From assembly GCF_001677475.2 (NCBI RefSeq), contig NZ_CP015229.1: 64,000 bases of DNA; one strand, written 5' to 3'. Each line of letters opens with the position of its first letter. The first letter of the stretch is position 1. The notes beneath the pieces are model-generated. The model had not been told where the DNA came from. It saw only the letters and a list, made by a program, of their open reading frames with translations, and did no database searches. The stretch is from Escherichia coli. GTDB taxonomy: Bacteria > Pseudomonadota > Gammaproteobacteria > Enterobacterales > Enterobacteriaceae. The position numbers were made by a program, and so were the translations under genes. This document shows positions 5,665 to 48,713 of this stretch, in pieces.

Positions 5665-8395
<2,731 letters not shown>

Positions 8396-9377: not shown

Positions 9378-9394
9378 ATTGCTCTAATTAATTT
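9378..9394 (+). promoter_or_regulatory. P1 C1-repressor operator-like site upstream of ssb
   Basis: ATTGCTCTAATTAATTT matches the recalled C1 operator consensus ATTGCTCTAATAAATTT at 16 of 17 positions. Confidence 0.5.
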
Positions 9395-9413
9395 ATTTTA
9401 TTAGGTAAGATAA

Positions 9414-10046
9414 GTGGCACAACGCGGTGTAAACAAAGTCATCCTGATTGGTACCCTGGGGCAAGACCCGGAGATCAGGTATATACCAAATGGCGGCGCG
9501 GTCGGAAGACTCAGCATCGCAACGAATGAATCATGGCGCGACAAGCAAACGGACCAACAGAAAGAGCAAACAGAATGGCATAAAGTCGTTTTGTTCGGAA
9601 AACTTGCTGAAATTGCGAGTGAGTATTTACGAAAAGGTTCTCAGGTCTACATCGAAGGGAAACTTAAAACCCGTAAGTGGACAGATGACGCCGGTGTAGA
9701 ACGTTACACGACGGAAATTATCGTCAGCCAGGGCGGCACCATGCAAATGATCGGCGCTCGCCGTGACGATTCACAGTCCTCAAATGGCTGGGGGCAATCA
9801 AACCAACCTCAAAACCACCAGCAATACAGTGGTGGCGGTAAACCTCAGAGCAACGCCAATAACGAACCTCCAATGGACTTTGACGACGATATTCAAAAAC
9901 GACTGAAAGAAAAGCGGTGGTCCAGACGCCGACAAAAGCACGAACTCGCTAAAAAACGCCAAAGCTGGCAATGGCACGCGCTTTTCACGAAAAGAACACC
10001 CCGAGGCATTGCTTTCGCTGGTGGGAAAACATTCCTCCCCACCTGA
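9414..10046 (+). CDS. ssb: single-stranded DNA-binding protein with non-canonical C-terminus (basic 50-aa extension after DFDDDI instead of terminal PF)
   Basis: Track ORF; OB-fold region closely resembles E. coli/P1 SSB (VNKVILIG...TEWH...MDFDDDI); reading continues [14 protein letters not shown]... to a stop at 10046. Confidence 0.85.
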
Positions 10047-10083
10047 AGGCGCAATACATCAAATTTTAAGCAGAGAAAAGACT

Positions 10084-10737
10084 ATGAATAAAATGGCAAC
10101 GAAAGAGCTTTTTAAGTTCCTTCCCAAATACAAAGCTCACAAAATCGTTAGTGCATCGAAAATCAAAGATATCGAGATTATCTCATTGATTGATAATACC
10201 CCTGCTTGTGGCTATATCACATTAATGGACCCCCAAGGCGTAACGGTTCGTGTTGATGCAGCGTTTTTGCAAAAACACCGACCAGATACTGGCGGCTATC
10301 TGCTCGGTTATGAGGACGGTTATCTGTCCTATTCACCAGAAAAAACATTTGAAGAAGGCTTTAGTCGGACTAACGACTTCTTCGAAAATGAGGTATCGCT
10401 TAGCATTGAAGGTCACAATGGGGTGACATTCATTACAGCCAGGGACGTAACTATTGCTGCCGGTGGCATCATTACCACACAAGAAGAAATCGACCTTGAA
10501 GCAGCCGACTTCTCTGACGCGCTAATGTGGTTGAAGGAAGGCAAGAAAGTTGCCCGACGCGAGTGGAAAGGCGAAAAGCAATTCTGCTGGTTAGTTCTCG
10601 CTGGAAGCGTCAATTTACACGGCATTCACGTTCCTTATGGTGACCATTTTGTATTGAAAGATGCACAAAATATGGACAGCGTTTGGTTGCCGTCTGTGGA
10701 TGATTTACTGGCATGTGACTGGTTTGTAGTGGAGTGA
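10084..10737 (+). CDS. two-domain protein: unknown N-terminal domain plus C-terminal DUF2829-like (Tad2-family-like) domain
   Basis: Track ORF 10009-10737 trimmed to the ATG in frame; C-terminal motif ALMWLKEGKKVARREWKG ... DWFVVE resembles DUF2829. Confidence 0.55.
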   Translation: MNKMATKELFKFLPKYKAHKIVSASKIKDIEIISLIDNTPACGYITLMDPQGVTVRVDAAFLQKHRPDTGGYLLGYEDGYLSYSPEKTFEEGFSRTNDFFENEVSLSIEGHNGVTFITARDVTIAAGGIITTQEEIDLEAADFSDALMWLKEGKKVARREWKGEKQFCWLVLAGSVNLHGIHVPYGDHFVLKDAQNMDSVWLPSVDDLLACDWFVVE

Positions 10738-10743
10738 TTTAAC

Positions 10744-11526
10744 GTGGAAAATACTAAAGCAATTCAATACCGCCTGCGTAATGGTCAGAGTGTCGAAGTG
10801 ACCATCAATAATGATGGTGTGCCTGGCGAAAAGGTTTCGATCTCTGATCTGGCTATCGAAAAAACCATCATGTGCCACCTTGGCTTTACTGAAGAAGTGA
10901 GCAAAAAGCATGGTGTAGCAATCTGGAGCGCAATGGATACTGGTATGCGCAGATTCATTACTGCTCGTACCCCAGGGATGACCATGATGGACCTCATGCA
11001 GATTGCGCCGCTGTTTGAATGTGAGCCTTTAGATGTATTCAGCAATCCAGCTATCTGCCAGCAGTTATATGGTGAGATGAAACTCGCGGTTACCCCCATT
11101 GTGCTGCATGAAGGATCGCTTGCTGGCGTGTGGAAAGTGGAGCGTATTTCAAGCTACATGCCTTTCCATGTCAACGGCGTAATCACTGGTGAAAATCAAC
11201 CTGTTTCCGTTATAAAGTCAGACCTCAAGCGCGCAATTCTTGAAGCAAGTTGTCGAGTTGTCGGCCTGGGCAAACAGTCTTATGTTTCCTTCCCGGCTGG
11301 CCCTGAAGGCCCGGCAGAAATTCTGATTATGGATGCCGATCTGCTATGGCAAATACAGTTTCTGATTGGCAAAAGCATCATCCGCGCTGAAGAACTCGAT
11401 CAGTACATTACCTGCACGATGACGGATGAAGTCAAAAGTGTGGCTATAGCCAATGCCCGGAACCTATGTCGTGCTGCATTAACAGAACTGCAAGAAAACA
11501 CCACGGAAGAGGTGGAAAGTGATTAA
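10744..11526 (+). CDS. hypothetical protein, 260 aa
   Basis: Track ORF; GTG start behind a GGAG RBS; tightly packed with neighbours. Confidence 0.5.
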   Translation: MENTKAIQYRLRNGQSVEVTINNDGVPGEKVSISDLAIEKTIMCHLGFTEEVSKKHGVAIWSAMDTGMRRFITARTPGMTMMDLMQIAPLFECEPLDVFSNPAICQQLYGEMKLAVTPIVLHEGSLAGVWKVERISSYMPFHVNGVITGENQPVSVIKSDLKRAILEASCRVVGLGKQSYVSFPAGPEGPAEILIMDADLLWQIQFLIGKSIIRAEELDQYITCTMTDEVKSVAIANARNLCRAALTELQENTTEEVESD

Positions 11527-12613
11527 TCGTATACAGAATGAATCTGCCTGGTTAGCACTGATAGAACGGTATAAAGACAATTGGGAACTGGCAGCAAAAG
11601 AGTTGCTTGATATTGAGTTAACACCTCATCAAGCAAAAATTATTAACGCGATAAAGAACACCGGAGCCAAAGTCACTGCCACCACACCACATGGTATTGG
11701 GGAAACCTCTATTGTGGCAGTGATTAGCATCCTGCAAACAATACTGTATTCGTGTTCCCGTACAGTGGTTGTTTCTCCTGCGATTAACGATAGTCGAAAA
11801 ACAATAATTGACTATATGTTCCGTTATTGGGAGCGAGTTACCCAAAAACACCCTTTTCTTGGCAATTATTTCAGAATACACCCTGACAAAGGGTTGGTGC
11901 ATATCAGTGAAACATGGGGATGCGTCTATATAACCTATTGTCTGAATAACGAAGAGTCTCTGGCTGGTTTTACTGGACCGCACGATCTTTTCATCGTTAT
12001 TAACTCGGCGGAAATCAGCGATCGCGCTCATGCAGTGATAACTGGCAATTTAACCAATTATGACTCGCGCCTGCTGTTGCTGTCGAAACCATCGGAACGC
12101 GAGAAAGGGTACTTTTATGATTCGCATCACCGGTTGGCCCATAGTAAAAACAATCCTGCTGGTTTTTTCACGGCGATAACTCTAAACACAGAGGATTCAC
12201 CTCTCGTTTCTGAAGCATATCTTGAATTCAAAGCCAAAGAGTTTGGTGGACGCAATAGCGATGAATATCGCCGATTGATCTTGGGGAAATTCCCCGGGAT
12301 TCGGGAGTTGATGGAAAAGTCATCTGTTCCCCGTAATATGCACTTCACAATGACTGACGGTAGTAAATGGGTAGTGCCTACGATCGTGATCGCCAAACAC
12401 CATGCGAAACATCACGCTCAAAAACACAACTCCAGCACATTAGACTGGCTGAAGGCCTATACAATACCGTTATTCTCGGCAAACCATAACGCTATAACTG
12501 AATGGGCTAAACAAATCCCCTGGCAGGATGTGGCTGAAGAGGCGTTTGTCGAAAAACCACCAAGAGATTTGCACGAGCACTGTTGGCTGACATCAGAAAA
12601 AAGCTTCTCGTGA
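11519..12613 (+). CDS. hypothetical protein with terminase-large-subunit-ATPase-like region and non-canonical P-loop (GIGETS)
   Basis: Track ORF; local pattern LTPHQ ... TTPHGIGETS ... DLFIVINSAE ... ITGN parallels the Q-motif/Walker A/Walker B/motif III spacing of large terminases, but the Walker A lysine is replaced by Glu. Confidence 0.45.
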   Translation: MINRIQNESAWLALIERYKDNWELAAKELLDIELTPHQAKIINAIKNTGAKVTATTPHGIGETSIVAVISILQTILYSCSRTVVVSPAINDSRKTIIDYMFRYWERVTQKHPFLGNYFRIHPDKGLVHISETWGCVYITYCLNNEESLAGFTGPHDLFIVINSAEISDRAHAVITGNLTNYDSRLLLLSKPSEREKGYFYDSHHRLAHSKNNPAGFFTAITLNTEDSPLVSEAYLEFKAKEFGGRNSDEYRRLILGKFPGIRELMEKSSVPRNMHFTMTDGSKWVVPTIVIAKHHAKHHAQKHNSSTLDWLKAYTIPLFSANHNAITEWAKQIPWQDVAEEAFVEKPPRDLHEHCWLTSEKSFS

Positions 12614-12616
12614 GGT

Positions 12617-12643
12617 AAAAATCCCGCCGATTGGCGGGATTTC
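12617..12643. terminator. bidirectional intrinsic terminator between the accessory module and the dar operon end
   Basis: Hairpin ATCCCGCC-GATT-GGCGGGAT with flanking A and T runs. Confidence 0.6.
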
Positions 12644-12644
12644 T

Positions 12645-12953
12645 TCAATATACGATCTGGTCTACATGATCACCAAAATCATCGTCGTCGTCCTCATCGC
12701 CACCATCTACTGCTGGCCAATCAACAAACCAGCCAGCGTAAAGATGCAGCGTTCGGAGAACATCACTTGCGGGAGCATCAAGGGTGTTAACGAATCCCAT
12801 ATAGCTATTGGGATTTGCTCCAGCTATGGCTTCAGCGATCATGTCCTCGGTAATGTCACCGGAGATAATGCTTAAACGCCCGGAAACTTCTTCATTATCA
12901 TCAAATTCGATAATGGCATCTCCACCTAATGGCGCTGCGATTTTAATCTGCAT
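12645..12953 (-). CDS. small highly acidic protein (C-terminal DGGDEDDDDDFGDHVDQIVY), last gene of the dar operon
   Basis: Track ORF; overlaps the ddrB-like stop by 11 nt; function unknown. Confidence 0.5.
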   Translation of the reverse strand: MQIKIAAPLGGDAIIEFDDNEEVSGRLSIISGDITEDMIAEAIAGANPNSYMGFVNTLDAPASDVLRTLHLYAGWFVDWPAVDGGDEDDDDDFGDHVDQIVY

Positions 12954-13724
12954 TATTTAGCTCCTTTGCCACACCTAATAACAGTTCCAGCAATCCGTCA
13001 CCATTCATCAGTGATGCGGCAGCGGCCTCTTTGTCATGATACAACTGAAGAGCCATAGAGAATACTTCCGTTGCTGACGTTTTGGAAATAGTCGGTGATT
13101 TCTGCCGAATTTTCCCGGTGTTACTTACTGAGGCTGGCGGGTATACCTTCGCCATATAAATATTACTCAATCGAGATCTGAAGCACCATTCAGGCTTGCC
13201 ACGCCCACCGATATTGACGAAAGATGGCTTATCCCCTTCAACATTGGCCTTCAGGAATGACCGGGCTTTCTCTAACAAACCAGGGTTACTGTACTCAAGA
13301 TGATGACCCAGCTCGTGCCACAGTGCACTTGCATTTTCATCGTTCAAATTGACAGCAACAACACCATTTAGATTTGCATATGCCCTTCCCTGGTGGTGAA
13401 CTACCTTTGATAAGGTCGATATTTTCCCGCCGGTCAGGCGATAAATATCAGCAAGTTCCTTGCGCAGGTCTATCCCACCATTCTGTCCAGCGCGGGCTTC
13501 TTCCACTTCTTCTGTGATAAAAGAGTCGGCCCACTCAAGAGCTTTTTCTTCAGATACGGATGAGTTTGCGATCGCACTGTTCATGGCAGATAACACTTTC
13601 TCGTGGACCGAACCCATACTTCGCTGATTCATTTGCCAGCGTGTCTGCGGGTTATATGAGAATCGCTTAAGTAGTTGGTCAAGCTGCTCAAGTTCTTCTT
13701 CACTGACATACTTTTTAGCCTCAC
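12943..13724 (-). pseudogene. ddrB: 3' fragment of IS-interrupted ddrB-like gene (carries HELGHH zincin-like motif)
   Basis: Reading across the IS target duplication rejoins this frame to the upstream fragment (...PGIIGE|AKKYVSEEELEQL...). Confidence 0.6.
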
Positions 13725-13789
13725 TATTAGACGTCAACTAGTTTTGCCGACTCGCGCCAACTATACTGGCCGCACCCTTCAGGGCGACA

Positions 13790-14545
13790 TCAAGTCGCGC
13801 TTGTTACTGCCTTCGCTGTCTTTTTCCTGTAGCTTTCCCCTTTCAGTTCGAACATATATCCGTGATGGATCAGCCTGTCTGCCGCAGCCACCGCCATAGT
13901 CTCATCCACGAAGATGCTGCCCCACATGCTGAACGGATGGTTACTGGTTATCACCAGGCTCCCACGTTCATAGCGATGCGCTATTAACTCGAACAGCACA
14001 CCCGTTTCGGCACTATCGCGTTTGACATAGCCAAGATCATCCACCACTATCACCCGGTAGCGATCCAGTTTCAGTAGCAGCTCATTCAGTTTCAACTGAG
14101 CTCTGGCTTTACGTAGTTCCTGCAACAGCTCTCCTGCGCTGTAGAACCGGGCCCGGTAGCCCTGACCTACTACGCCATCCACGATCGCTGCCGCCAGATG
14201 GCTTTTCCCCAACCCGCTGGCTCCGAACAGCAGAACGTTTTCTCCTGCATCAACCCAGTCTGTCGTTTCACAGAGTTGCCGGAACTGAGCTCCATTCAGT
14301 TCCGGCACCTGACTGAAGTCGTATTCGCTCAGCGTTTTGGCAACTGGCAACCGGGCCTCCTTTTTATAACGACGCAGTTTTTCACTCTCGCGCCACAGGA
14401 GTTCTTCATTGCATAGCGTCAGAAGATAGCGCGATGGTGTCCAGCCTTCTGCCAGCGCTCGTTTTTCCAGAGCGTGCCATTCAGCTCCAACTCGTGTCAG
14501 GCGTAGTTTACGCAGGCTATGTTCAAGGTGATGGATATTGCTCAC
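13790..14545 (-). CDS. istB: IS21-family helper ATPase IstB
   Basis: Walker A GASGLGKSH, Walker B VIVVDDLGY, ITSNHPFSMW motif typical of IstB/DnaC-like AAA+ proteins. Confidence 0.9.
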   Translation of the reverse strand: MSNIHHLEHSLRKLRLTRVGAEWHALEKRALAEGWTPSRYLLTLCNEELLWRESEKLRRYKKEARLPVAKTLSEYDFSQVPELNGAQFRQLCETTDWVDAGENVLLFGASGLGKSHLAAAIVDGVVGQGYRARFYSAGELLQELRKARAQLKLNELLLKLDRYRVIVVDDLGYVKRDSAETGVLFELIAHRYERGSLVITSNHPFSMWGSIFVDETMAVAAADRLIHHGYMFELKGESYRKKTAKAVTSAT

Positions 14546-16041
14546 TGCGAACCTCCCTTGCCACGCAGTAGTTGCTCATAACTGCTCAGGTTATGCTGTA
14601 TCACATTGACTACCGGCAACGCCTTTTCTTTTATACCCAGGAAGCGCATCAGCCGGTGCAGATCCACGTTTCCCGGGGTATTCAGCATCTGCTCCATACC
14701 TTTTGCCACGACTGAGATATCGTCGTATCCTGCAGCCAGTTTCAGGGCATGTACCATCAGCCTTCCTGCCATATCGGGCTCCAGATGATTACATAAGCGA
14801 CGCCACAGCCTCCGCCATTCATCGTCCGGCAGGATGTCATTTCTCAGCGTTGCATGGCAGAACGCACCGGGCTTTTTTGCCAGACTGTCGATCACATGTC
14901 GGAAGTCGATACGACGGGCCCGCGTCTTCCCTTTTTCTGGTCTGACGCGAGGGCAGCTCATGACCTCGCTGCTGCCAACGTAACAGCTCAGACGATCGTC
15001 CCATAACCTGACCCGTAACAGTTGACCTACAAGCCGGGAAGGTACGCTGTAGACGACGTGCTTCACATTGATGGTACTGCTGCGACTAACCCTCACAGTC
15101 AGCTCATCATAGTCAGCACTGCGACGAAGCGGCAGCGGTTTCAGATGAAGACGTTCTTCCTTGACCAGATCCTGATTGTTACGGTTGTGCCGCATAACCT
15201 GCTGAGTGATGAAGGCCTGATATTCTTCTATGGTGCTGAAGTCGTTACTGCCCCGCAGTATCAGCGCCTGACAGATACGCCTTTTCAGATGTCCGTGGGC
15301 ACTTTCAACCGAGCCATTTTCGTGGCCCCGACCGGCATTATTGTGTACGCCCTGCATTCCGTAGTGCTGACAGAGAGTAGCATAACGCTCAGTCAGCTCG
15401 CGGCGTCCATCTTCGCCCTGTTGTTTCCATGCTGCCCTCAGGCTGTCCGTTTTATGTTCTACCGGCACTCCGCCCAGTTGTCCGAGGGCTTCCTGCAGGC
15501 CTTCAGCCAGAGCAGAGAAGCTCTCACCACCCAGAACAACCCGCATCCAGCTCCAGTGGCTCCATTCCAGACGGAAGTGATACAACTTATGCGCCAACAA
15601 CTTACCGGCGATGGTGACAACTACACCTTTCAGTTCAGTAAAGTCCGACAGGCCTCGCAGGCCGGGCTGATGTTGCTGGCGGAACATGACCTCCTGCTCT
15701 GTACCATACTGTAGTTTCCATTCGCGAACCCGCCGTTGCATTGTTCTTCGAAGGCTGTTGGGGTACTGGCCGGGATATTTATCCTGTAGCATCTCCAGTA
15801 GAGTTGTTGGTGTCAGAGCCGGCCTCTCTTTCAACAGAGGAACAAGCATGCTGTCCCACACAGCTTCCAGAGGATCTTTGCGTGTGCGCCAGTGCCGAAC
15901 ACTGTTTTTTGCCCACTCTCCTTTTTCGATCCGACGACCAGAACGGACTGAGATACCAGCCTTCATGGCCGAGATATGCTGAGTTATACCTTTCTTACGC
16001 TGAGTCATATAGTAACTGACCTGAGAAGTATTGAGCGTCAC
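14542..16041 (-). CDS. istA: IS21-family transposase IstA (true start may be an internal ATG)
   Basis: N-terminal HTH pattern like IS21 IstA, overlaps istB start in the typical istA-istB arrangement. Confidence 0.8.
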   Translation of the reverse strand: MTLNTSQVSYYMTQRKKGITQHISAMKAGISVRSGRRIEKGEWAKNSVRHWRTRKDPLEAVWDSMLVPLLKERPALTPTTLLEMLQDKYPGQYPNSLRRTMQRRVREWKLQYGTEQEVMFRQQHQPGLRGLSDFTELKGVVVTIAGKLLAHKLYHFRLEWSHWSWMRVVLGGESFSALAEGLQEALGQLGGVPVEHKTDSLRAAWKQQGEDGRRELTERYATLCQHYGMQGVHNNAGRGHENGSVESAHGHLKRRICQALILRGSNDFSTIEEYQAFITQQVMRHNRNNQDLVKEERLHLKPLPLRRSADYDELTVRVSRSSTINVKHVVYSVPSRLVGQLLRVRLWDDRLSCYVGSSEVMSCPRVRPEKGKTRARRIDFRHVIDSLAKKPGAFCHATLRNDILPDDEWRRLWRRLCNHLEPDMAGRLMVHALKLAAGYDDISVVAKGMEQMLNTPGNVDLHRLMRFLGIKEKALPVVNVIQHNLSSYEQLLRGKGGSQ

Positions 16042-16129: not shown

Positions 16130-18346
16130 TCATACCTCACCAATAATGCCAGGGAGAATATTGCCGTTAGGATTAAACGCTCGCGAAAGGAAGAGTTTCA
16201 GCGCCCCCATGCCCTCCGATGCTTCAATATCACCAATAACCCGGTTAACAATGGCCGCACTCTTCGGATTAGCATCCGCCAACGCTCTGGCTACAATTTG
16301 CAGGGACGATACGACCTCACGCTGCATATCCGTCCTGATCTCATCAATAAACTCTGGCGTTATGCCGTGCTCTTTAAGAATATCCCTGCCTTCCGCCGTT
16401 ACCCCATCGATATCACCGACATGTTTATTAACCCGACTTTGCAATGCCTTAAATGCCTTCAGAATTCCACGGGAATCATCCGCTTTACTAACGGCCTTCC
16501 TGAATGCTGGCAAGAAGTCTGAGTTAACCTCATTTTGTTGATCGGCCCACTGAATGGAGGCTTCTTTCATCTCGTCCAGAGTCAGATCACCCAACGCGGT
16601 ATGGTCTGTGAATATGAGCGACAACCTCTGAACCATTTCTGCCAATGGTGATGCCGAATGCGCCGCGCTAAGGAATGCTTTCACCCTGGTTGGGCGAATG
16701 GAAAACCAGTCAATAGCTGGTGGCATATCTCCGTTTTGTATCGCCTGCGCTATCTCATCAAAGCCGTCGCGCCCAAGGGAGGATGCGTGATTTAACAATC
16801 CGCGAAGTAACGAATTGCTGATACCGAATAATCGGCACCATTTATTCACGTCGGCAACAGGCATTCGAACAAAATGCGCAAGCACTTGTACAAGCTGTTC
16901 ATCCTGGGGATCTGTACGGGAAAGCAGCCTGATCAGATGAATAATGTCTTTGATGCCGGATGCCCGATGTAATAGCAAGCTGGTATATGGAGCAACACCG
17001 TTGTAACTACCGCCGGAAACGGACTCGAAAAGACCGCCGGATATCCCTTGCATGCCTTCGTTTTCCAGTTCCTGAGACACCTGGCGAAGGATATCCTGTA
17101 ACGACACATCGCCGCCGCCAAACATATCCCCCAGCGCCTGGCCCTGGTGCTGTAACTCATCATTGATACGTTGAGCCATCAACTTAAAGGCGGTGGCCAT
17201 ACGCTTCGCGCTACGGTTATTCGCGACGATGAACAACGCGAGTGCTTTCACTTCCGGGGCCGTTTCGCTGAACATATCCCCCTGAGCAATAACATCGGTA
17301 ATATGCTGGCCTGACTCCTTCGATTGCCTTACCAGGTCTACCGCATCTTTCAATGCCGCCAGCGCCTTTTTATCGAGGCTATCCGCTGTCTCAATGCCAT
17401 CAACAATAGTTGTCACAGCCTGCTTGTGCGCTTCTCCTGATAAAGCCTGCATCTGGACAAAATCATTGGCTGCCGCATTAAGCGCCGTCAGAACATTACG
17501 CATATCCGGATCAGGTTCTTCTGCAACCATCCTTACCAGGCGCGCATCCTTATATGCCTTGGCAAAGATCGCGTTTTGTATACGGTCAACAAGTTGCCGC
17601 GTTGGTCGCCCATCTTCCGTTACAAGGCCAGCAGCCTGTGTGGCACCAACTTGCGTCATGAATCCGCGAATAAACGCGTCATTACTGCGGCTAAGCAGAT
17701 CTCCGCTTTCTGACGGATTAAACAGCGCCATCATCGCCGGTGTTATGCTGTCGGCATCAACAAAAGCCTTTTCACTGGCTGCCATTTCCTGAAGATCAGA
17801 AATATTTGAGTCCTTGGCAAACTGAACGCGGTCAACCTTAGTTAACCGGCGGCGCACCAATACAGGAGCCGTCATTGATTCAACCTTTTCAGGTCGTATG
17901 CCGAATTCGGTCGCATGTTCAATCAGGTACTCACGATACCGATCCGCATTGCCGTCCTGATAGGCTTTAATGATTCCCATGGTCCGTCCATTACCTGACT
18001 CAACGGCATTGTCCTCACCAATTATCGGCGCGCCATGGCTGGATAAACCGGAATCGGTAAGCTGAGCAGGCCGCAAATCTTTGGATATCTGGTTAACCTG
18101 AAGAAGGCTGGATGCGCGGGTCCGGTCGCGCGGCTGAAGTTCCTGGGGATAGTCAGGATTAATTTTCCCATCCAGAGTATTGGATACCAAAAGAGCTGAG
18201 GCATCGACGATATCAAACGCTGTTTTTACCTCGTCTCCCTTCGCTGTCACCACATACGAAACCCGCCCATAATCGGGCAGGTTCTTAAGCAGCTCGATCA
18301 GCGTTTCTATGCTGGTGGCAATTACCACCTGATCGCTTAAGCTCAT
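16130..18346 (-). pseudogene. ddrB: 5' fragment of IS-interrupted ddrB-like gene; 738-codon ORF ending with an IS-encoded Val-stop
   Basis: ORF runs from the dar operon into the IS terminus and stops 2 codons inside; position after darA-ddrA matches P1. Confidence 0.6.
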
Positions 18347-36865: not shown

Positions 36866-37310
<445 letters not shown>

Positions 37311-37400
37311 GTTATTTCAAGCCTTTTAAGCCCCTTCAAAAATGCCCGCATCTCCTTTTAAAGCGAATTTTAAAGAAGCTCCAAAAGCAGGTCAATTAAG

Positions 37401-37916
37401 TCAACCTGCCTTTGCTTTTACGCTGTGTGAGAGAATACTTGCTTCAATTTCTTCCAAAATCTCTCTGACTTGCTCGTCGGACATATCAACCAACATCAAT
37501 GCAGCCAGGCGTTTACGACCCTCTAGTTGCAGCAGTTCTTGAGTATCTTTGTCCAATAAGCGTAGTACCGTTTCAACGCCTTTCCTTGCGAACATGCTGG
37601 TAAGAGCCTCTCGTTCTTCACTAGTAAGAAACGAGAGCATCTCAGTTAGCTGATCGCCTTGACTTAAACTGCTTTGTGATTCTTGTATTTTTGGTGGGTT
37701 TCCGTTGCCTGTTTTTAACCATTCAAGACTAACACCTTCACTTTCTGCAATGCGTACCAATATGCTTTCTCGAGGTTCTGGTGTGTTTCCCTTTTTAAAA
37801 TAGCTTTGTAACGTATTGATATTTATTCCCCAGGCTCTGGCTGCAGCACTTCTTGATGGATACCGTCTAATAAGATATGCCATGCGCTCTACGATAGGTT
37901 CTTTTGCTTGCTCCAT
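37401..37916 (-). CDS. Mu-like prophage repressor (c-like), N-terminal HTH
   Basis: Leftward gene divergent from ner/A/B; HTH-like segment RSAAARAWGININTLQSY. Confidence 0.6.
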   Translation of the reverse strand: MEQAKEPIVERMAYLIRRYPSRSAAARAWGININTLQSYFKKGNTPEPRESILVRIAESEGVSLEWLKTGNGNPPKIQESQSSLSQGDQLTEMLSFLTSEEREALTSMFARKGVETVLRLLDKDTQELLQLEGRKRLAALMLVDMSDEQVREILEEIEASILSHSVKAKAG

Positions 37917-38107
37917 AAAAGTACCTCTAGGTATTTTTCTGCATAAAGGTTCTTTTCCATCTATCTAATTGAATAGAAAGGAAAATTCAAAAATACAAAC
38001 AAAATACAAAAAATACCTTGTAATGGTACTTTTTGTGATCTACGATTTTATCCATACGGATATCCGACCGGATATCCGCGCGGGTAACTTTGTAGGGTAA
38101 AGGAAAG
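37917..38107. promoter_or_regulatory. divergent early promoter/operator region with tandem palindromes CGGATATCCG and AAATACAAA repeats
   Basis: Two copies of the 10-bp palindrome separated by 2 bp just upstream of ner. Confidence 0.5.
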
Positions 38108-38359
38108 ATGAGACAAAGAGAAGATCGCGACCGCGATTGGCCTTCGCTAAAGATTCAGCTGGCGCTCAAAGATAATGGGTGGTCTTCCTTCCGGGAGCTT
38201 TCACTCCATGCTGGTTATGCTCAGGATTCACTGAAAGCGGTAGTTCGTACACCGAACAAAAAATACGAACGCGTAATTTCTGACGCTATAGGTGTACCGC
38301 CAGAAATCATCTGGCCCAGCCGGTATCGTAACGATGGATTTATCAGGAAGGCGTCGTGA
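38108..38359 (+). CDS. ner: Ner-like DNA-binding protein
   Basis: Pattern DW...L...SL.ALS...GY...L......P...E.II...L...PE.IWPSRY matches Mu Ner/Nlp. Confidence 0.8.
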   Translation: MRQREDRDRDWPSLKIQLALKDNGWSSFRELSLHAGYAQDSLKAVVRTPNKKYERVISDAIGVPPEIIWPSRYRNDGFIRKAS

Positions 38360-38360
38360 T

Positions 38361-40457
38361 ATGCAGTTGTACGTTACCGCAAACGACTTGCTCGGCGTAC
38401 CAGGAATGCCAGTCACTGCAAAAGGTATCCGTCAGGCGTTACAGCGTTTTGCCCATGGGCGCAATGACGTTAGCCGCCGACGTGAAGGCACAAAAGCCAT
38501 TGAATACCACATCGATTGCCTGCCAGAGGTAACTCAAAGGGCACTGCGTGAACGCTATGTGGAACAGCTGGTGGCTACAGAGAACAATGTTTCTGAAGTG
38601 AAGGTTGTTACCAGGAAGGCTCGTAATCCTGATGCAGTCCAGGCAATCGAAGCATATCGCGGTTCTCCACAACTGATGGAAGAACGCCTGAACGCGTTGA
38701 CCGAAAACCAGCGCCGGGTATCTGAAGCAAGATCTGCGCTGGTGGTGGAAGTGCTGAGGCTGGAAAGAGACGGTGATCTCGGGCGACTGAAAGCCATTAA
38801 CTTTCTTGTCGAAAAAGCCCGTAAAGGTGAACTACCGGAACGCCTGCAACAGGCCGCAGTTAACGCCAATGCAAAACGTGGTGCTAATCGCACCATCAGT
38901 CGTGACCCACTTTATCAGTGGGTGCTGAAGTACAACCAGTCACAGAACGCCGCAGAACGGCTGCTGTTACTGGCACCAGGAAAACGCGACGAAATAAAAC
39001 CGGAGGAAATTAGCTGGCTACCTGAATTTCTGGCGCAGTATCGCCAGGCGAATGGCAGACCTATGTCAGAAGCCTACGAAGATTTTGTCGCGGAATGGCA
39101 GCGTCGCCATGCAGACGAACCCTACATGATAGAGGTGATGCCCTCTTACGATGTGGTTCGTTATGCCATGAAGAAATTGCCGGAAGTGGTGAAACAAAAA
39201 GGCCGTGTTACCGGCAGTGAATACCGTCAGCTTGAAGGATTCACCCGCCGCGACTGGACAGCTATGCCGGTGAATTATGTCTGGATTGGTGACGGTCACG
39301 GTATGAAGCTGAAATGTGCGCATCCGATCCACGGGCGTCCATTCTCACCAGAAGTCACGTTTGTGATCGACGGTGGAACCCGGTTTGTTGTTGGCTGGAG
39401 TCTTGATCTTGCCGAGAACGTTTTCGCCGTTGCCGGAGCGATACAGCACGGCATTCGCAACCACGGAAAACCGTTCCTGTATTACTCGGATAACGGTTCT
39501 GGTGAAACGGCTGACATGCTTGACAAAGAGGTCGTGGGTATTCTGCCCCGCCTGGGGATTAAACACCCAACAGGTATTGCCGGTAATCCACAGGGGCGCG
39601 GCATTATTGAACGCCTGAACCGGACACTGCCGATGCGTATAGCCAGGAGGTATCGCACCTATTTTGGCAAGGGTGCTGACCGGGAATCGTTGCGTGTACT
39701 TAACCGTGATCTGCGTTCAGCGTTTAACGCCCTGCAACAGGACAAGCCTCTGAACGACCGCCAGAAAGCTGCAATGCGCGAGCTACCATCGTGGGCGGAG
39801 CTTATTGAGGCTATTCGTGAAGGCGTGGAATGGTACAACAACCGCCCGCATTCTGAGCTGCCTATGAAACCGAACGGGCGGCATTACAGCCCGGCAGAGT
39901 TCAGAAAAAAACGCCTGGCAGAAGAAGACACCGAAATTGAGTGGCTGAGTGATCTTGAGCTGCGCGACATGTTCCGCCCGATGGTGGAGCGTCCGGTAAA
40001 ACGCTGTGAAATCAAATGGCTTGGCAATATTTATTACGCGCCGGAGCTGCGTGACGAACACGGTCGCAAAGTGCTTATCAGTTATGACATTCATGACGCC
40101 GAGCGAATTACGGTACGTCGCAAGGACGGCAGCTTTATCTGTGAGGCGATATGGAACGGCAATAAACGCGCAGCCTTCCCTGTCAGTGCGGAATATCACA
40201 AACAACAGCAGCGTATTAAAGGGATGCGCAAACGCGCTGAGGAAAAAATTCGCGATGCTGAAGATGAAGGTATTCAGATTCTGGAACACAAACAGGCTGA
40301 ACCCTGGCTGGATAATGTTTATCGCCCGGTTGGTAATGTGGTGGCCGTTCAGCAACCGGAATATGAAGAAGAGCATGACGAAGAATTTGAACGCGATTTC
40401 AGACTGGGGATGCAAAAACTTTTTGCCATGCAGGAAGAAGATGATCCGCTGGCCTGA
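38361..40457 (+). CDS. Mu-type DDE transposase A
   Basis: Track ORF 38292-40457 trimmed to the ATG; N-terminus parallels Mu A (PG.P.T..G......KGGKAIEY); about 700 aa. Confidence 0.85.
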   Translation: MQLYVTANDLLGVPGMPVTAKGIRQALQRFAHGRNDVSRRREGTKAIEYHIDCLPEVTQRALRERYVEQLVATENNVSEVKVVTRKARNPDAVQAIEAYRGSPQLMEERLNALTENQRRVSEARSALVVEVLRLERDGDLGRLKAINFLVEKARKGELPERLQQAAVNANAKRGANRTISRDPLYQWVLKYNQSQNAAERLLLLAPGKRDEIKPEEISWLPEFLAQYRQANGRPMSEAYEDFVAEWQRRHADEPYMIEVMPSYDVVRYAMKKLPEVVKQKGRVTGSEYRQLEGFTRRDWTAMPVNYVWIGDGHGMKLKCAHPIHGRPFSPEVTFVIDGGTRFVVGWSLDLAENVFAVAGAIQHGIRNHGKPFLYYSDNGSGETADMLDKEVVGILPRLGIKHPTGIAGNPQGRGIIERLNRTLPMRIARRYRTYFGKGADRESLRVLNRDLRSAFNALQQDKPLNDRQKAAMRELPSWAELIEAIREGVEWYNNRPHSELPMKPNGRHYSPAEFRKKRLAEEDTEIEWLSDLELRDMFRPMVERPVKRCEIKWLGNIYYAPELRDEHGRKVLISYDIHDAERITVRRKDGSFICEAIWNGNKRAAFPVSAEYHKQQQRIKGMRKRAEEKIRDAEDEGIQILEHKQAEPWLDNVYRPVGNVVAVQQPEYEEEHDEEFERDFRLGMQKLFAMQEEDDPLA

Positions 40458-40532
40458 ATAAAAAAACAGTCCGCGGGAACGGACTGTTAAACAAGGAAAA
40501 CAAAGTGAATCTGTAATGATGGAGGAAATACT

Positions 40533-41486
40533 ATGACTGATATTGATGATGTTTTCAACACTATTAATACGTTGATCAACGAGGGCGACAAGCCCCAGGA
40601 AGATATTGCTGATGAGGCCGGAATGTCTCCGGCAACACTCTCGGCTCTGCGTAAAGGAGAATACAAAGGCAATGTCGAAGGTATGCATGACAAATTACAG
40701 GAATGGTATCGGGTCTGGCAAAAAGGGCAGAATTTGTCAGGTGCCCCCGGCGTTGTGAAGACCCAGACATTTTGTGATTTGCATGAGCTGTTTAAAACAG
40801 TGCGCTCACTCGGGATTATCAGTGTTGTTGTTGGCGTACCGGGTGTCGGCAAAACTTTTGCTGCACGGGAATATTGCCGCAAGACAGCTAATGCCTGGAT
40901 GGTGACGCTTGCACCGGCACATTCGAGCGTAACGGAATGCCTCCTTGAAATAGCATATGCGCTGGAAATTAATAATCCGGGAAGAAATAAGGGGAATATA
41001 ACCCGCGCCATTCGCAGAAAACTGGGCGGTGGTAAAGAAACCAGTGGCCGTGTTAACCCCCTGCTGATTATTGATGAAGCTGATCACTTAAGTGTGGATG
41101 GTCTGGAGCAATTACGCGCCATTCAGGATGCTACTGGCGTGGGGATGGTTTTAATTGGCAACCCGAAACAGATGGCGGATGCCACCCGTCGTGGGACTGA
41201 TGAACTGGCTCGTTTGTTCAGCCGTTTTGCCATGACAAAACAACTGCGCAAAGTGAAAAAGACTGATGTGATGGCTGTAGCCAAAGCATGGGGAGTAACA
41301 CAGGAAGATGAGCTGGATCTGCTGATGAGGGTTGCCGAAAAGCCCGGGGGATTGCGTGTATTAACTCACACACTGAATCATGCGTGGCTGGCGGCGAAAG
41401 GTGCTGGTTCATCCCTGAATAAAAGTCACATAAAAGCGGCTTTTAAGGAGGCTTACAGCAACCCTAAGTTGCTGAACTGGCAGTAA
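40533..41486 (+). CDS. Mu B-type AAA+ target-DNA activator
   Basis: Walker A GVPGVGKT, Walker B LLIIDEADHL; directly after transposase. Confidence 0.85.
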   Translation: MTDIDDVFNTINTLINEGDKPQEDIADEAGMSPATLSALRKGEYKGNVEGMHDKLQEWYRVWQKGQNLSGAPGVVKTQTFCDLHELFKTVRSLGIISVVVGVPGVGKTFAAREYCRKTANAWMVTLAPAHSSVTECLLEIAYALEINNPGRNKGNITRAIRRKLGGGKETSGRVNPLLIIDEADHLSVDGLEQLRAIQDATGVGMVLIGNPKQMADATRRGTDELARLFSRFAMTKQLRKVKKTDVMAVAKAWGVTQEDELDLLMRVAEKPGGLRVLTHTLNHAWLAAKGAGSSLNKSHIKAAFKEAYSNPKLLNWQ

Positions 41487-41498
41487 GGGGCATAAACC

Positions 41499-41726
41499 AT
41501 GATGTCACGGAATATCAAAATGGCAACGGAAGTAAAGACCTGGTTACAGGAGCGCGGCAGCCACGTCAACGAATCCTGGCTGGGCGTGGCCCGCCCGGTG
41601 CTTGAAATCACCTGCCCGCCACCAGAGCTGGTCAGAAACGCTGTCAGGATTATGGAGCATAAATCCGGGGTTGCCCGTTCAGTATGGACGGCCCGTCTTA
41701 ATGGTTGTCAGATTATCTGGAGATAA
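41499..41726 (+). CDS. hypothetical early protein (Mu kil position)
   Basis: Position only. Confidence 0.35.
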
Positions 41727-41728
41727 CG

Positions 41729-41959
41729 ATGAGTATCAGGTCTGGAAAATATATTGAGTGGGTTAAACATTGTCAGCGCCACGGAGTGCCTTTGACGACA
41801 TATAAATGCCCAGGATGTGGCAAACAACTTATGACGCAAAGTTCCCCCGAAAATGAAGTATGGGACTCCTTCACATGTTGTCCGTGGTGTAGTGGTGTTT
41901 TCTTTAAACAGGTAGAAGGCGCGAAAATAAAGGTCAGCGCAGTTATTCAGAATCAATAA
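41729..41959 (+). CDS. zinc-ribbon protein (CPGCG ... CCPWCSG)
   Basis: Two Cys pairs; track ORF trimmed to the ATG. Confidence 0.45.
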   Translation: MSIRSGKYIEWVKHCQRHGVPLTTYKCPGCGKQLMTQSSPENEVWDSFTCCPWCSGVFFKQVEGAKIKVSAVIQNQ

Positions 41960-41970
41960 GGAGAAACAAA

Positions 41971-42240
41971 ATGGCAAAAGTAATCTTTGAATTTAACCGC
42001 ATGGAAGATGTTGAGTTTCAGAAAAAAGGAGGTTTCTTTGTAGGAATGAGTGTGCAACTGGAAGAACGGTCTCCTAAGGAGCAAATCGGACCACATGACG
42101 TAATGGCAGGCATTATCAAGAGCATGGCTCCTGAAATTATTGAAAAAGCAACCCAGGAGTTGTTGAAGTCAGCCAGACAACTTGGACTGGAAGCCGAAGG
42201 CGAGTTATTCCGGTATAAACCGGATGCAGCCAAACATTAA
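41971..42240 (+). CDS. hypothetical early protein
   Basis: Track ORF in a tight same-strand array. Confidence 0.4.
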   Translation: MAKVIFEFNRMEDVEFQKKGGFFVGMSVQLEERSPKEQIGPHDVMAGIIKSMAPEIIEKATQELLKSARQLGLEAEGELFRYKPDAAKH

Positions 42241-42260
42241 TTCATAAAGGAACTCTGACA

Positions 42261-42680
42261 ATGAAAGCCAAAATCAGAAACGAAATTCAGGCATTAATTC
42301 GAATTAAAATGCGTAATAACAATGGCAGAGACTTACGCGAGTTTATTTGCGCGCGCGAAGTTGAGGGGTATGGCGAAAAGACTTACCTGATTGCATTTGA
42401 CCATTACAGCATTTGTGCGCGTTATTGCGGGGAGGCGGTATTCCGCGCCATTACGTTTGGCAATGCCTTCAATGTGGATTTATGGGAATACGTCATGGAC
42501 CGCGAATACATCAGCGCGTCAGACCCGGACGCACGGGAGCAGTGGAAGAACATCTGGCGCGATTACCGGCAAATGGCGAAAGGCTGGACGCAGGGGACGT
42601 ATTCTTCCCTTGCCCTGAAAGCGGTTCAGCTATCTGTGCGGCATATGCTGTCGGCACGATTCGAACTCCCGGTGCACTGA
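42261..42680 (+). CDS. hypothetical early protein
   Basis: Track ORF. Confidence 0.4.
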   Translation: MKAKIRNEIQALIRIKMRNNNGRDLREFICAREVEGYGEKTYLIAFDHYSICARYCGEAVFRAITFGNAFNVDLWEYVMDREYISASDPDAREQWKNIWRDYRQMAKGWTQGTYSSLALKAVQLSVRHMLSARFELPVH

Positions 42681-42696
42681 TAAGGAGGGCATCATC

Positions 42697-42984
42697 ATGA
42701 TAATCCCTCGCAAAAGATGGTCACGTGAAGACCGGGAATTTATCGAAGCCAGTGTCGGGAAAATGACTGTTGAAGAAATGGCGAAAAAACTGAACGTTGC
42801 CACAAGCGCCCTGCGGGCACATGCCAGAAGGTACGGAATATCGTTGTGTGTATACAAAATCAGTGAGCACGACAAATATTTGTGTCGTGAACTTTATAAA
42901 GAAGGGGTGGCTATTCATGTCATTGCCCAAAAGATGGAATTAAGCAATCGGGCTGTATCCAGCATTGTATACAGAGAATATTAA
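42697..42984 (+). CDS. hypothetical early protein, possible HTH
   Basis: Track ORF. Confidence 0.4.
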   Translation: MIIPRKRWSREDREFIEASVGKMTVEEMAKKLNVATSALRAHARRYGISLCVYKISEHDKYLCRELYKEGVAIHVIAQKMELSNRAVSSIVYREY

Positions 42985-43004
42985 TTAACAGGAGCTTTAT
43001 TTAT

Positions 43005-43529
43005 ATGGCTAAACCAGCAAAACGAATCAGGAATGCCGCAGCAGCTTATGTTCCTCAATCCCGGGATGCCGTGGTGTGTGATATTCGCTGGATTGGTGAC
43101 CTGCAACGCGAAGCGGTACGACTTGAAACGGAAATGAATGACGCTATTGCTGAAATTACGGAGAAATACGCCTCACGGATTGCGCCGCTTAAAACCCGTA
43201 TTGAAACCCTTTCAAAAGGCGTTCAGGGGTGGTGTGAAGCGAACCGTGACGAACTGACGAACGGCGGCAAGGTGAAGACGGCCAACCTGGTAACCGGCGA
43301 TGTGTCATGGCGTCAGCGCCCACCATCGGTAAGTATTCGCGGTGTGGATGCGGTGATGGAAACGCTGGAGCGTCTTGGCCTGCAACGCTTTATTCGCACG
43401 AAACAGGAAATCAACAAGGAAGCGATTTTACTGGAACCGAAAGCGGTCGCAGGTGTTGCCGGAATTACAGTTAAATCGGGCATTGAAGATTTTTCTATTA
43501 TTCCGTTTGAACAGGAAGCCGGTATTTAA
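43005..43529 (+). CDS. gam: Gam host-nuclease inhibitor (Ku-like DNA end-binding protein), 174 aa
   Basis: Near-identical over most of its length to Mu Gam as recalled (MAKPAKRI ... IIPFEQEAGI). Confidence 0.9.
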   Translation: MAKPAKRIRNAAAAYVPQSRDAVVCDIRWIGDLQREAVRLETEMNDAIAEITEKYASRIAPLKTRIETLSKGVQGWCEANRDELTNGGKVKTANLVTGDVSWRQRPPSVSIRGVDAVMETLERLGLQRFIRTKQEINKEAILLEPKAVAGVAGITVKSGIEDFSIIPFEQEAGI

Positions 43530-43627
43530 TACCACCACAAATATTTAATTAGTTCACTTTCTTTTAATTATGGCGCGATGCGTCAGGGGATTGCTCGCGC
43601 CTGAATCTGATATACGGGATATAAAAA

Positions 43628-44170
43628 ATGATTAATACAAAAGTTCTGAGCGGCGTCAGCACATTATTACAGGTTTACGGGCGTCTGACCTGCGGCGTTC
43701 TGGCTGAAAAAATGAAGATGCCACCTTCCTCAATGGTGTATTTCCTGCGTGATGCGGTTGATGCCGGAGTTCTCACTGAATGCAACGGATTTTATGACGT
43801 TCCGCGCCCTCGTCCAACGCCGCCAGTAAGACGAAACGCAACAACTGAACACCCCGATGTTGATGATGCTCAATGGTGCGCGTTCCGCCGCTCTTTGCCC
43901 TGGCTGGAAGGCAATGCCATTCCGGCACTGGCAAAAGAATTCGCGACAGGCGTACTGACCTGCGAGTCGGTTTACATCGTTGCTGAAGTGGATGACGAGA
44001 TGTGCAAACAGGGAATGCCCCGTTTTGTGATGGCTTATATCGATATCCGGCTGGGTCGTTTTATTTGTGGCTCCAGTGGCTGGAATATCACCGACCACAT
44101 CCTGCGCTATCTCATTCTTGATTATTCACCGGTTCCGGCAGAAACACAGGAAATCAGCGAGCATGGTTAA
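43628..44170 (+). CDS. hypothetical early protein, 180 aa
   Basis: Track ORF. Confidence 0.4.
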   Translation: MINTKVLSGVSTLLQVYGRLTCGVLAEKMKMPPSSMVYFLRDAVDAGVLTECNGFYDVPRPRPTPPVRRNATTEHPDVDDAQWCAFRRSLPWLEGNAIPALAKEFATGVLTCESVYIVAEVDDEMCKQGMPRFVMAYIDIRLGRFICGSSGWNITDHILRYLILDYSPVPAETQEISEHG

Positions 44171-44337
44171 GTCAACTGGCTTTGTCCTGCTGGTTGGCAC
44201 CTGCGGGAATGATGCCTGTGATGCCATTCCGGTAACGGAAAAAATCTGGCCCACAGAGCAGACATGTATGCAGGTGCAGGAACGCTTACAAAAACGCTAT
44301 CCCGGTGAAGTTTTTTATTGCGAAGAGGTATTACGAA

Positions 44338-44700
44338 ATGAGTAAGCATATTTATGACGACCCTAAATATCGGGCTGAAATGCGGGCGCAACTGGTTGTC
44401 AGTGGATATACACCGGAGCAGGCCGATACAACTATGACAGAACTGATGGGACAGCTTCCATTTGATGAAGCTGAATATGAATACTGGCTGAAGCGGTACA
44501 AGCTGGAAATTATGGAAAATACCACACTTCCATCGCTGATCAGAATAATAAAAAGCGTTGTCGACAATGCTTGTTATAGCGGTGATTGTCTGGCCGCAGC
44601 AATTGCGACCCATGCTCTGGTGAATCTGCTGGAGGTTACCGGCGCAGTTTTCCTGAATCCTGAAAAGGTATTAAGAGATGAAAATACAGATGATTACTGA
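44338..44700 (+). CDS. hypothetical early protein
   Basis: Track ORF trimmed to the ATG. Confidence 0.4.
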   Translation: MSKHIYDDPKYRAEMRAQLVVSGYTPEQADTTMTELMGQLPFDEAEYEYWLKRYKLEIMENTTLPSLIRIIKSVVDNACYSGDCLAAAIATHALVNLLEVTGAVFLNPEKVLRDENTDDY

Positions 44701-45013
44701 TGCTGATTTAATGGCTGCAACCTTAGTTTCCAGTGGCATGTCAGAACAAAAGGTAAATGATTTTCTGGATAATGTCGTATACCAACACTATGAGCAGGCC
44801 AGAGAAAATTTAATTTCGGAAAAGCTCACGATGATTGCTGAATCATTAAGCCCTGCATGGATTATCGAAGAGTTGCGGGGAATCATTGCCAGCCATGATA
44901 AAGTGGCGGCAGTTGCCGCCCTCGATGTGCTACAGCGAATGAGTAAAGAGCTATTCAACACTGAATTAATTTTTAAATCCGGGGGACATAATGAGCCGCA
45001 CATCCCTGATTAA
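44678..45013 (+). CDS. hypothetical early protein
   Basis: Track ORF. Confidence 0.4.
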   Translation: MKIQMITDADLMAATLVSSGMSEQKVNDFLDNVVYQHYEQARENLISEKLTMIAESLSPAWIIEELRGIIASHDKVAAVAALDVLQRMSKELFNTELIFKSGGHNEPHIPD

Positions 45014-45542
45014 ATTAATTCATGTTGCCCGTCGGGAGTTGCAACTCGACGATGACACTTACCGCGCCTTTCTGGTGCAGTGCACAGGCAAGACCAGTTG
45101 CCGCGAGCTGACCTTCGCACAACTGGAACTGGTGCTCGATGCCATGAAAGAGCGCGGTTTTAAGAAGCAGAAAAAACATCCCCGCCGTCGCTTTAAGGGG
45201 CATGTCACACCACGCGAGAAGATTTACAAAATCTGGCAGCAGATGTTTCTTGATGGTTTCGTCTCCGATATCAGCGACGCCGCGCTGGACAAATACGTTG
45301 AACGCCTGACGGCCAGACGTAATGGCGGTCAGGGTGTTTCCACGCTGGTCTGGTGTCACGGGGAATCGTTGCAGGTTGTGCTCGAAACGCTCAAGCAGTG
45401 GCACATGCGCTGCATCCGGGAAGCCTTTGCCCGACATGGTGTGCCGTTACCTGCAAGCCCATCCGGGCGGGAACTACGCGGATATGATGCACTGACCAGT
45501 GCATATGCCCGCGCACGAAACAGCGGGAGAATTGCTGTATGA
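44991..45542 (+). CDS. GemA-like regulatory protein (DUF1018-like)
   Basis: Position immediately before the Mor/C-like gene; size. Confidence 0.5.
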   Translation: MSRTSLIKLIHVARRELQLDDDTYRAFLVQCTGKTSCRELTFAQLELVLDAMKERGFKKQKKHPRRRFKGHVTPREKIYKIWQQMFLDGFVSDISDAALDKYVERLTARRNGGQGVSTLVWCHGESLQVVLETLKQWHMRCIREAFARHGVPLPASPSGRELRGYDALTSAYARARNSGRIAV

Positions 45543-45988: not shown

Positions 45989-45993
45989 TCAAT

Positions 45994-46018
45994 GAAGCCG
46001 GTAAATCCGGCTTTTTTT
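45994..46018 (+). terminator. intrinsic terminator after the early operon
   Basis: GAAGCCGG-TAAA-TCCGGCTT followed by a run of seven T. Confidence 0.75.
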
Positions 46019-46073
46019 ATGCCTCCGGCACCATGAAGCAGACCACGTTTAAATCTGCTTCACAGGTGCTTTT

Positions 46074-48711: not shown

Positions 48712-48713
48712 GC

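Follow-up and report, generated by a model that had tools for sequence, protein, structure and literature searches.

A P1-like phage-plasmid (Punavirus), carried on a 64,000-nucleotide stretch of the Escherichia coli contig NZ_CP015229.1 (hereafter, the window), very probably encodes a pseudo-terminase: an ancient duplicate of the ATPase domain of the terminase PacB that has lost the Walker A lysine, the Walker B Asp-Glu pair, motif III, and the nuclease, has gained a domain of ~100 amino acids, is held under purifying selection, and belongs to a cassette with the gene isaA. The open reading frame in question (positions 11519 to 12613, plus strand, 364 amino acids, GTG start) joins a dead PacB-like ATPase domain to a small C-terminal domain, an architecture read from phrog_5902, BLASTP, an AlphaFold2 (AF2) model, and Foldseek. 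Its product is not a working terminase, and it has been retained by selection. Since neither ATP hydrolysis nor DNA cutting is possible, the protein probably acts by binding and not by packaging DNA.

Large terminases are among the best-conserved proteins of phages and a main target of bacterial pattern-recognition immunity. To our knowledge, non-catalytic derivatives of these enzymes are almost undescribed, and our literature searches on isaB, decoy terminases, PacB paralogues, and terminase-like proteins in phage-plasmids returned no description of the gene. Each of the PLSDB plasmid records listed for the gene names its product a hypothetical protein. Automatic annotation elsewhere calls it a "terminase large subunit" (MH422554) or a "DNA packaging protein" (UniProt), and these public names are misleading.

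A terminase ATPase fold stripped of its catalytic motifs

Residues 1 to 262 (positions 11519 to 12304) adopt the large-terminase ATPase fold in the predicted structure and are paralogous to residues 11 to 274 of P1 PacB, with which they share 35% identity (BLASTP over residues 11 to 272, E value 5e-52). Among all phage records, the best non-self matches of the pseudo-terminase are the PacB proteins of P1, P7, phiW39, SJ46, RCS47, D6, and JK004, at 34.5 to 35.7% identity, and against four PacB orthologues the identities span 32 to 43% (E values of 1e-46 to 1e-68), which places the protein in the PacB-type terminase lineage. An exhaustive search recovered 746 relatives at an E value of ≤1e-3. 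The typical relative is a protein of 470 to 510 amino acids with the Walker A motif SGHGTGK[ST], the Walker B motif hhhhDEASG, and a motif III reading SQPT or GNPT, and a profile of the family matches solved large terminases (Sf6 gp2, E value 2e-16; also P74-26 and T4 gp17). Judged by these alignments, the homology to terminases in general and to PacB in particular is far beyond chance. The closest active relative, P0008, occupies the pacB position of another P1-like element, in which a pacA-sized gene and P0008 are followed by c1 and cre.

Profile and structure comparisons agree with this assignment. The protein matches phrog_5902, a family of unknown function, with an E value of 1.6e-186, and the sole function-assigned PHROG that it matches is phrog_2, terminase large subunit (residues 22 to 260, E value 3.6e-9). 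Searches against Pfam, NCBIfam, PADLOC, and PDB sequences yielded nothing useful: there was no Pfam or NCBIfam family and no PADLOC model at an E value of ≤1, and the only match to a curated defence or anti-defence family came from the neighbouring Tad2-like gene. The AF2 model carries a predicted local distance difference test score (pLDDT) of >90 over residues 1 to 260, and Foldseek aligns it with the ATPase domains of the large terminase subunits (TerL) of Sf6 gp2, P74-26, D6E, and T4 gp17 at a probability of 1.00. An earlier reading of this DNA (the original prediction) had proposed a P-loop NTPase fold of the large-terminase kind and had named a Foldseek comparison with large terminases as one way to check it. 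The structure prediction bears it out, for the model has the ASCE (additional strand, catalytic glutamate) P-loop ATPase fold of the terminase type.

The fold is retained and the chemistry is gone. The degenerate Walker A motif, TPHGIGETS (residues 56 to 64, positions 11684 to 11710), aligns with SGHGTGKSD of PacB, and Glu62 sits on the column of a lysine that is 100% conserved in 105 active relatives. The GxxGxGK[ST] consensus with its catalytic lysine is thus missing, exactly as the original prediction had it. That prediction also listed four strings, LTPHQ (34 to 38), TTPHGIGETS (55 to 64), DLFIVINSAE (156 to 165), and ITGN (174 to 177), as the terminase motif order. All four are present and in that order, but ITGN is not motif III; the equivalent segment is a degenerate LSKPSE (residues 187 to 192, positions 12077 to 12094), which aligns to LSQPTR of PacB (LLLSQPTR in PacB, LLLSKPSE here). 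The third string is real, yet it is itself a dead Walker B, with hhhhDE turned into VINS, a loss that the prediction missed. The degenerate motif, LFIVINSAE (residues 157 to 165, positions 11987 to 12013), takes the place of LYIIDEASG in PacB and carries Asn-Ser for an Asp-Glu pair that is conserved in 92% (Asp) and 100% (Glu) of the active relatives. Neither the Walker B hhhhDE (VINS for IIDE) nor the S/T-x-S/T coupling motif III (SKPSE for SQPTR) survives.

The absence of a nuclease-like C-terminal half, also proposed from the sequence, is equally clear. Homology to TerL and PacB stops at about residue 262 to 285, and residues 263 to 364 belong to a different family of small domains, for which no nuclease-like fold match was obtained, so that the RNase H-like nuclease domain is absent. 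There is likewise no adjacent small terminase and no late packaging module around the gene, which lies between isaA and hxr, downstream of ssb. Of five features that define a working large terminase, the protein therefore keeps only the fold and lacks the other four, and it should not carry that annotation.

PacB and the pseudo-terminase are homologous over the whole ATPase domain, have in common the N-terminal helices and a GYFYDSHH...SPLV segment, and occur in the same genomes. They differ in that PacB has an RNase H-like nuclease together with the lysine of Walker A, the Asp-Glu pair of Walker B, and motif III, whereas the pseudo-terminase has none of these and carries an unrelated C-terminal domain; PacB is essential and encoded in the late pacA-pacB operon, whereas the pseudo-terminase is accessory and lies in the putative early ssb operon. 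Identity between the two peaks at 55 to 71% in the non-catalytic segment 168 to 231 and is lowest around the P-loop, a distribution that fits a retained interaction or structural surface.

An old and selected clade of dead PacB paralogues

The pseudo-terminase is one member of a larger group. Eleven clusters (at 50% identity) lack both the Walker A lysine and the Walker B Asp-Glu, and a neighbour-joining tree unites all eleven in one clade, hereafter the dead clade. The lysine position is occupied within it by E, R, H, T, M, I, or C. Across 33 columns that are ≥80% conserved in the 105 active relatives, the dead clade has lost S56, G57, H58, K62, T85, A86, Q91, H152, D161, E162, S164, G165, and T192. 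These 13 positions are 82 to 100% conserved in the active relatives and surround the nucleotide site; structural glycine, proline, and aromatic positions and Gln38 are retained.

Against each PacB tested, dead proteins show 32 to 43% identity, and the cognate PacB is no closer than the others, while PacBs are 56 to 72% identical among themselves. We rejected a scenario in which each dead copy diverged together with its cognate PacB on the basis of these similar identities; the similar distances of the dead copies from all PacBs, set against the mutual similarity of the PacBs, indicate a single ancient duplication, after which the dead copy evolved faster. A separate protein, P0042 (268 amino acids), has lost Walker A and Walker B independently, with S at the lysine position and SK for DE. 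It belongs to a different terminase lineage and branches among active TerLs in the tree, so that dead terminase-ATPase domains may have more than one origin.

Wherever the flanking sequence permitted a check, dead copies reside with a live PacB. In MH422554 the pseudo-terminase gene accompanies pacA-pacB, and a dead copy occurs together with a canonical PacB-type gene in L003, L026, 12 of the 13 loci L049 to L061, L101, L082/L083, and the L097/L098 contig. The alignments mark the pseudo-terminase as a paralogue of the element's own terminase, PacB, and not a foreign terminase. The neighbours of the dead genes are varied: members lie right after ssb (in the window and L007), overlap a gene for a RecA-dependent nuclease (L022), or lie near hot and umuC-like genes (L003, L008).

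The C-termini of the dead clade vary as well, comprising either nothing, a domain of ~100 amino acids, or a different domain of ~180 amino acids. In the window, residues 263 to 364 (positions 12305 to 12610) form a β-hairpin with helices and belong to an unannotated, widespread, and mostly stand-alone family of ~238 clusters of ~100-amino-acid proteins with the pattern M-P-D-G-S-x-W ... D-W-A-x-N-N-M-N-W. Neither Pfam nor PDB nor fold comparison gave this family a match, a nuclease-like fold included. Where members stand alone (loci L013 to L019 among them), they belong to the early operon that separates the repressor from the integrase in lambdoid prophages, or they lie in Rep3 phage-plasmids, again in accessory regions. 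Genes of the DUF5417 family lie a few kilobases upstream of dead-PacB genes and of stand-alone C-terminal-domain genes on different phage-plasmid-like contigs (L004, L018, L019, L026).

A range of data indicates that the gene is maintained. Pairwise ratios of nonsynonymous to synonymous substitution rates (dN/dS) among four alleles are 0.10 to 0.36, from which we conclude that this is a maintained gene; by domain, the ratios are 0.06 to 0.20 for the C-terminal domain versus 0.12 to 0.45 for the ATPase-like domain. The frame is intact in 21 of 21 IMG/VR loci, and the gene is near full length in all but one of the 119 PLSDB plasmids that carry it. Fourteen copies of a type with 52% identity, like the 21 IMG/VR copies, align along practically their whole length, and orthologues at 30 to 53% identity are still full length. 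The earlier suggestion of a repurposed packaging-ATPase fold fits all of this well: a terminase ATPase fold without catalysis or nuclease that selection maintains.

Genomic setting and the isaA cassette

The region from 9400 to 13800 is 96 to 98% identical to phages vB_EcoM-813R1, MH422554, and P1. Its gene order runs prt, pro, lyd, lyz, ssb, a Tad2-like gene, an isaA-like gene, and the pseudo-terminase gene, followed on the opposite strand by hxr and ddrB. The convergent hxr (12645 to 12953, minus strand) forms the right boundary of a slot, from isaA to hxr, that is known to vary among P1-like plasmids (PMC6906374, PMC9603915) and adjoins the dar anti-restriction genes. The pseudo-terminase is one alternative cargo of this slot, so the accessory placement given by the original prediction stands. 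Its claim that the gene lies far from packaging genes is only partly right: neither pacA nor pacB is found within the 64-kb window, yet the P1 portal gene prt (5674 to 7383) lies 4 kb upstream. Classic P1 has no DNA matching 11528 to 12646, and P1 IsaB is unrelated to the pseudo-terminase (E value 0.056); the idea that the latter represents isaB, which IS1 interrupts in classic P1, in an unbroken state was accordingly rejected. Besides its 119 PLSDB plasmids, about a third of the 335 that carry isaA, the gene occurs in 3 phage records and 21 IMG/VR contigs.

Upstream, the C1 operator Ossb, ATTGCTCTAATTAATTT (9378 to 9394, plus strand), lies within the ssb promoters and is 100% identical to that of P1, as is the ssb promoter region around it. 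The first gene of the putative operon is ssb (9414 to 10046, plus strand), and relative to P1 and MH422554 it bears a 15-bp deletion at ~9895 through which the terminal Pro-Phe codons are lost along with the stop codon. In the window, the SSB protein consequently runs to 210 amino acids with an altered end, its conserved DDDIPF partner-binding tip replaced. No plus-strand terminator is predicted between ssb and the pseudo-terminase gene, whose GTG start follows a Shine-Dalgarno-like GAGGTGG (11509 to 11515, plus strand) by 3 nucleotides and overlaps the end of isaA by 8 nucleotides. Given an operator identical to that of P1 and the lack of a predicted terminator, the gene most likely closes an early operon under C1 repression (ssb, Tad2-like gene, isaA, pseudo-terminase). 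A position downstream of a C1-repressed early promoter speaks against a function in the repressed lysogen, for instance the exclusion of incoming phages.

The invariable partner is the isaA-like gene (10744 to 11526, plus strand), which encodes an acidic orphan protein of 260 amino acids (isoelectric point [pI] 4.9) from a family of 23 clusters. An isaA homologue lies immediately upstream of the 364- to 366-amino-acid gene in 34 of 34 IMG/VR loci with enough flank, a pairing that extends over two divergent lineages and two sites in the genome (between ssb and hxr in P1 proper, and between cre and phd/doc in the L003 type). The pairing, observed in IMG/VR loci L028 to L061 and L101, is one-way: isaA also occurs without the partner, as it does in P1, and P1 isaA and isaB are not needed for plaque formation (PMC10695390). 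IsaA has no Pfam or PDB match. We considered and rejected the possibility that it is a degenerate PacA, which would have made the pair a duplicated pac operon, as BLASTP and profile comparisons found no similarity and IsaA proved unrelated to both PacA and TerL. A 33%-identical IsaA homologue lies in the contig that carries P0010 (L097).

A facultative third member of the cassette, the Tad2-like gene (10084 to 10737, plus strand), encodes a C-terminal Tad2-like (anti-Thoeris sponge) domain (PF11195, E value 6e-18). Classic P1 lacks this gene, which here separates ssb from isaA. Of the 21 lineage 1 loci, 5 have such a gene ahead of isaA, as do 12 of the 13 lineage 2 loci L049 to L061.

Further along the window, an IS21-family element (istB, 13790 to 14545; istA, 14542 to 16041) splits ddrB into fragments at 12943 to 13737 and 16130 to 18346. 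P1 homology ends near 37153, and from ~37150 to 64000 the window is a Mu-like transposable prophage of 57 to 59% GC, with genes for a MuA-like transposase (38292 to 40457), Gam (43005 to 43529), an endolysin (46074 to 46670), TerL (49729 to 51264), a portal (51261 to 52832), a major head protein (54766 to 55449), a sheath (57767 to 59311), a tape measure (60161 to 62026), and a baseplate hub (62026 to 63300). No PLSDB plasmid covers >15% of 37000 to 50000, and this part of the window reflects either the insertion of a Mu-like phage into a P1-like plasmid or an assembly chimera. Kinship of the pseudo-terminase with the Mu-like prophage terminase (49729 to 51264) was rejected, as the two have no relation.

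Candidate functions and biological meaning

Our leading proposal, which we hold tentatively, is that the pseudo-terminase is a non-catalytic mimic of PacB. Made early from the C1-controlled ssb operon, it would occupy PacA, PacB itself in the motor ring, or the portal, and the activity of a P1-type pacase would be modulated or poisoned through the occupied partner. Pac cleavage by the element's own enzyme could thereby be delayed, or a co-resident P1-type competitor placed at a disadvantage. We rank this proposal first because of the PacB origin of the protein, its persistent co-residence with PacB, and the retention of its non-catalytic surfaces. Inactive paralogues of ring ATPases commonly join or compete with the active assembly. 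The satellite-encoded proteins Ppi, of Staphylococcus aureus pathogenicity islands (SaPIs), and Rpp, of phage-inducible chromosomal islands (PICIs), are non-enzymatic and bind the small terminase of the helper phage. They represent the mechanism class that we propose, in which terminase function is affected by binding, but they differ in being encoded by satellites, in acting on the small terminase of a helper, and in being unrelated in sequence and fold.

Several points weigh against the mimic proposal. Classic P1 and about two thirds of the plasmids with isaA do without the gene, which implies that the protein is dispensable, and an early inhibitor of a phage's own late pacase offers no obvious benefit. 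A PacB-type terminase is not expected in lambdoid prophages, and the stand-alone homologues that those prophages carry suggest that the C-terminal domain probably acts on something other than PacAB. The neighbours, namely the Tad2-like gene and the dar genes, point to an interplay with host defence rather than to packaging.

It is in that direction that the main rival lies, and we consider it rather doubtful, taken jointly with its variant. Here, the protein would engage sensors of large terminases (Avs1-3, Upx, or others) without activating them or, in the variant, a dead nucleotide site would let an early terminase-like protein escape such sensors. An anti-defence neighbourhood, with a Tad2-like gene upstream and Dar anti-restriction genes downstream, favours this scenario, as do accessory status, early expression (itself deduced from the operon), and the presence of an Avs3-bound terminase (8dgc) among the Foldseek matches. 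There is also precedent in T4 vs.8 and in Ksap1 and Ksap2, small proteins of terminase-ATPase-like fold that bind Avs2 and that their authors suggest may be anti-defence proteins (bioRxiv 10.64898/2026.04.30.721860; PMC11564622). EcAvs2 is reported to touch the ATP held by the terminase via a bridging ATP, and SeAvs3 to make extensive contact with the nuclease domain (bioRxiv 10.64898/2026.04.30.721860). Because EcAvs2 reads bound ATP and SeAvs3 the nuclease, a protein without the P-loop lysine, Walker B, and nuclease domain should be a poor ligand for either. A bound mimic would moreover be expected to trigger the sensor, as vs.8 does, rather than to block it, and the protein matches neither PADLOC models nor anti-defence families. 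The fuller scenario, in which the dead ATPase copy is an early mimic that blinds or evades terminase sensors from within a mobile cassette with IsaA and a Tad2-like sponge, we regard as unlikely. If true, it would be the first counter-defence protein derived from a terminase.

The precedents themselves are instructive. T4 vs.8 is an early accessory protein of 219 amino acids, homologous to the T4 terminase ATPase domain (bioRxiv 10.64898/2026.04.30.721860), and it is the closest described analogue and the sole comparable case that we found. Both it and the pseudo-terminase are small, non-essential paralogues of the ATPase domain of their own TerL, encoded among early accessory genes outside the packaging module. 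They differ in that vs.8 keeps Walker A (GGRQSGKS) and Walker B (LYIIDEP), descends from the T4 gp17 lineage, and has no extra C-terminal domain. A comparison of vs.8 with our family in hhalign is weak (probability 9%, E value 0.0036), and with the differing Walker motifs it does not support membership in the vs.8 family; on this sequence evidence, the two have independent origins and resemble each other by analogy. Ksap1 and Ksap2, activators of KpAvs2 (PMC11564622), are lineage-restricted accessory phage proteins with reported similarity to the terminase ATPase fold (weak for Ksap2). Compared through the published accounts, they are much smaller and have no detectable terminase sequence homology, whereas the homology of the pseudo-terminase to PacB is unambiguous.

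A further account, which we also regard as unlikely, removes the protein from packaging and immunity altogether, as a neofunctionalised early protein. It might, for instance, assist replication or recombination by binding DNA or protein, with the dead ATPase as scaffold and the C-terminal part active. Dead-clade members recur beside genes of DNA metabolism (ssb, the RecA-dependent nuclease, hot, and umuC-like genes), the C-terminal domain is the most constrained part of the protein and stands alone in early-left operons of lambdoid prophages, and C-termini vary across the clade. These neighbourhoods, though, are generic accessory regions in which adjacency may be incidental, the C-terminal domain lacks any structural match, and neither domain has a DNA-binding signature or unusual charge; a pI of ~7 is uninformative as a hint of either DNA mimicry or DNA binding.

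That the gene is a decaying, functionless duplicate, a pseudogene in the making, is very improbable: all catalytic motifs are lost and classic P1 does without it, but the dN/dS values contradict decay, as do the intact frames in IMG/VR and PLSDB copies, the full-length divergent orthologues, and a conserved structured core. A second terminase or ATPase that functions despite its unusual P-loop is scarcely credible even with the P-loop glycines and the Q-motif Gln38 kept in 11 of 11 clade members and the packaging names in public records, since a glutamate at the lysine position would repel phosphate, that position varies within the clade, Walker B, motif III, the nuclease, and an adjacent small subunit are all missing, and the same genomes hold a real pacA-pacB operon.

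The protein thus represents a barely described kind, an accessory paralogue drawn from a terminase ATPase domain, and it is set apart by the completeness of its catalytic decay, by fusion to a novel domain, and by organisation as a mobile cassette. In practical terms, it brings forward two families without any annotation, the ~100-amino-acid C-terminal family and IsaA. The whole clade of dead PacB proteins is old, selected, and mobile as a cassette, and it persists alongside the live enzyme wherever flanks can be checked. P1, the host of the gene, is genetically tractable, and whether pseudo-terminases regulate or sabotage packaging, and whether terminase mimicry serves immune evasion, are directly testable questions.

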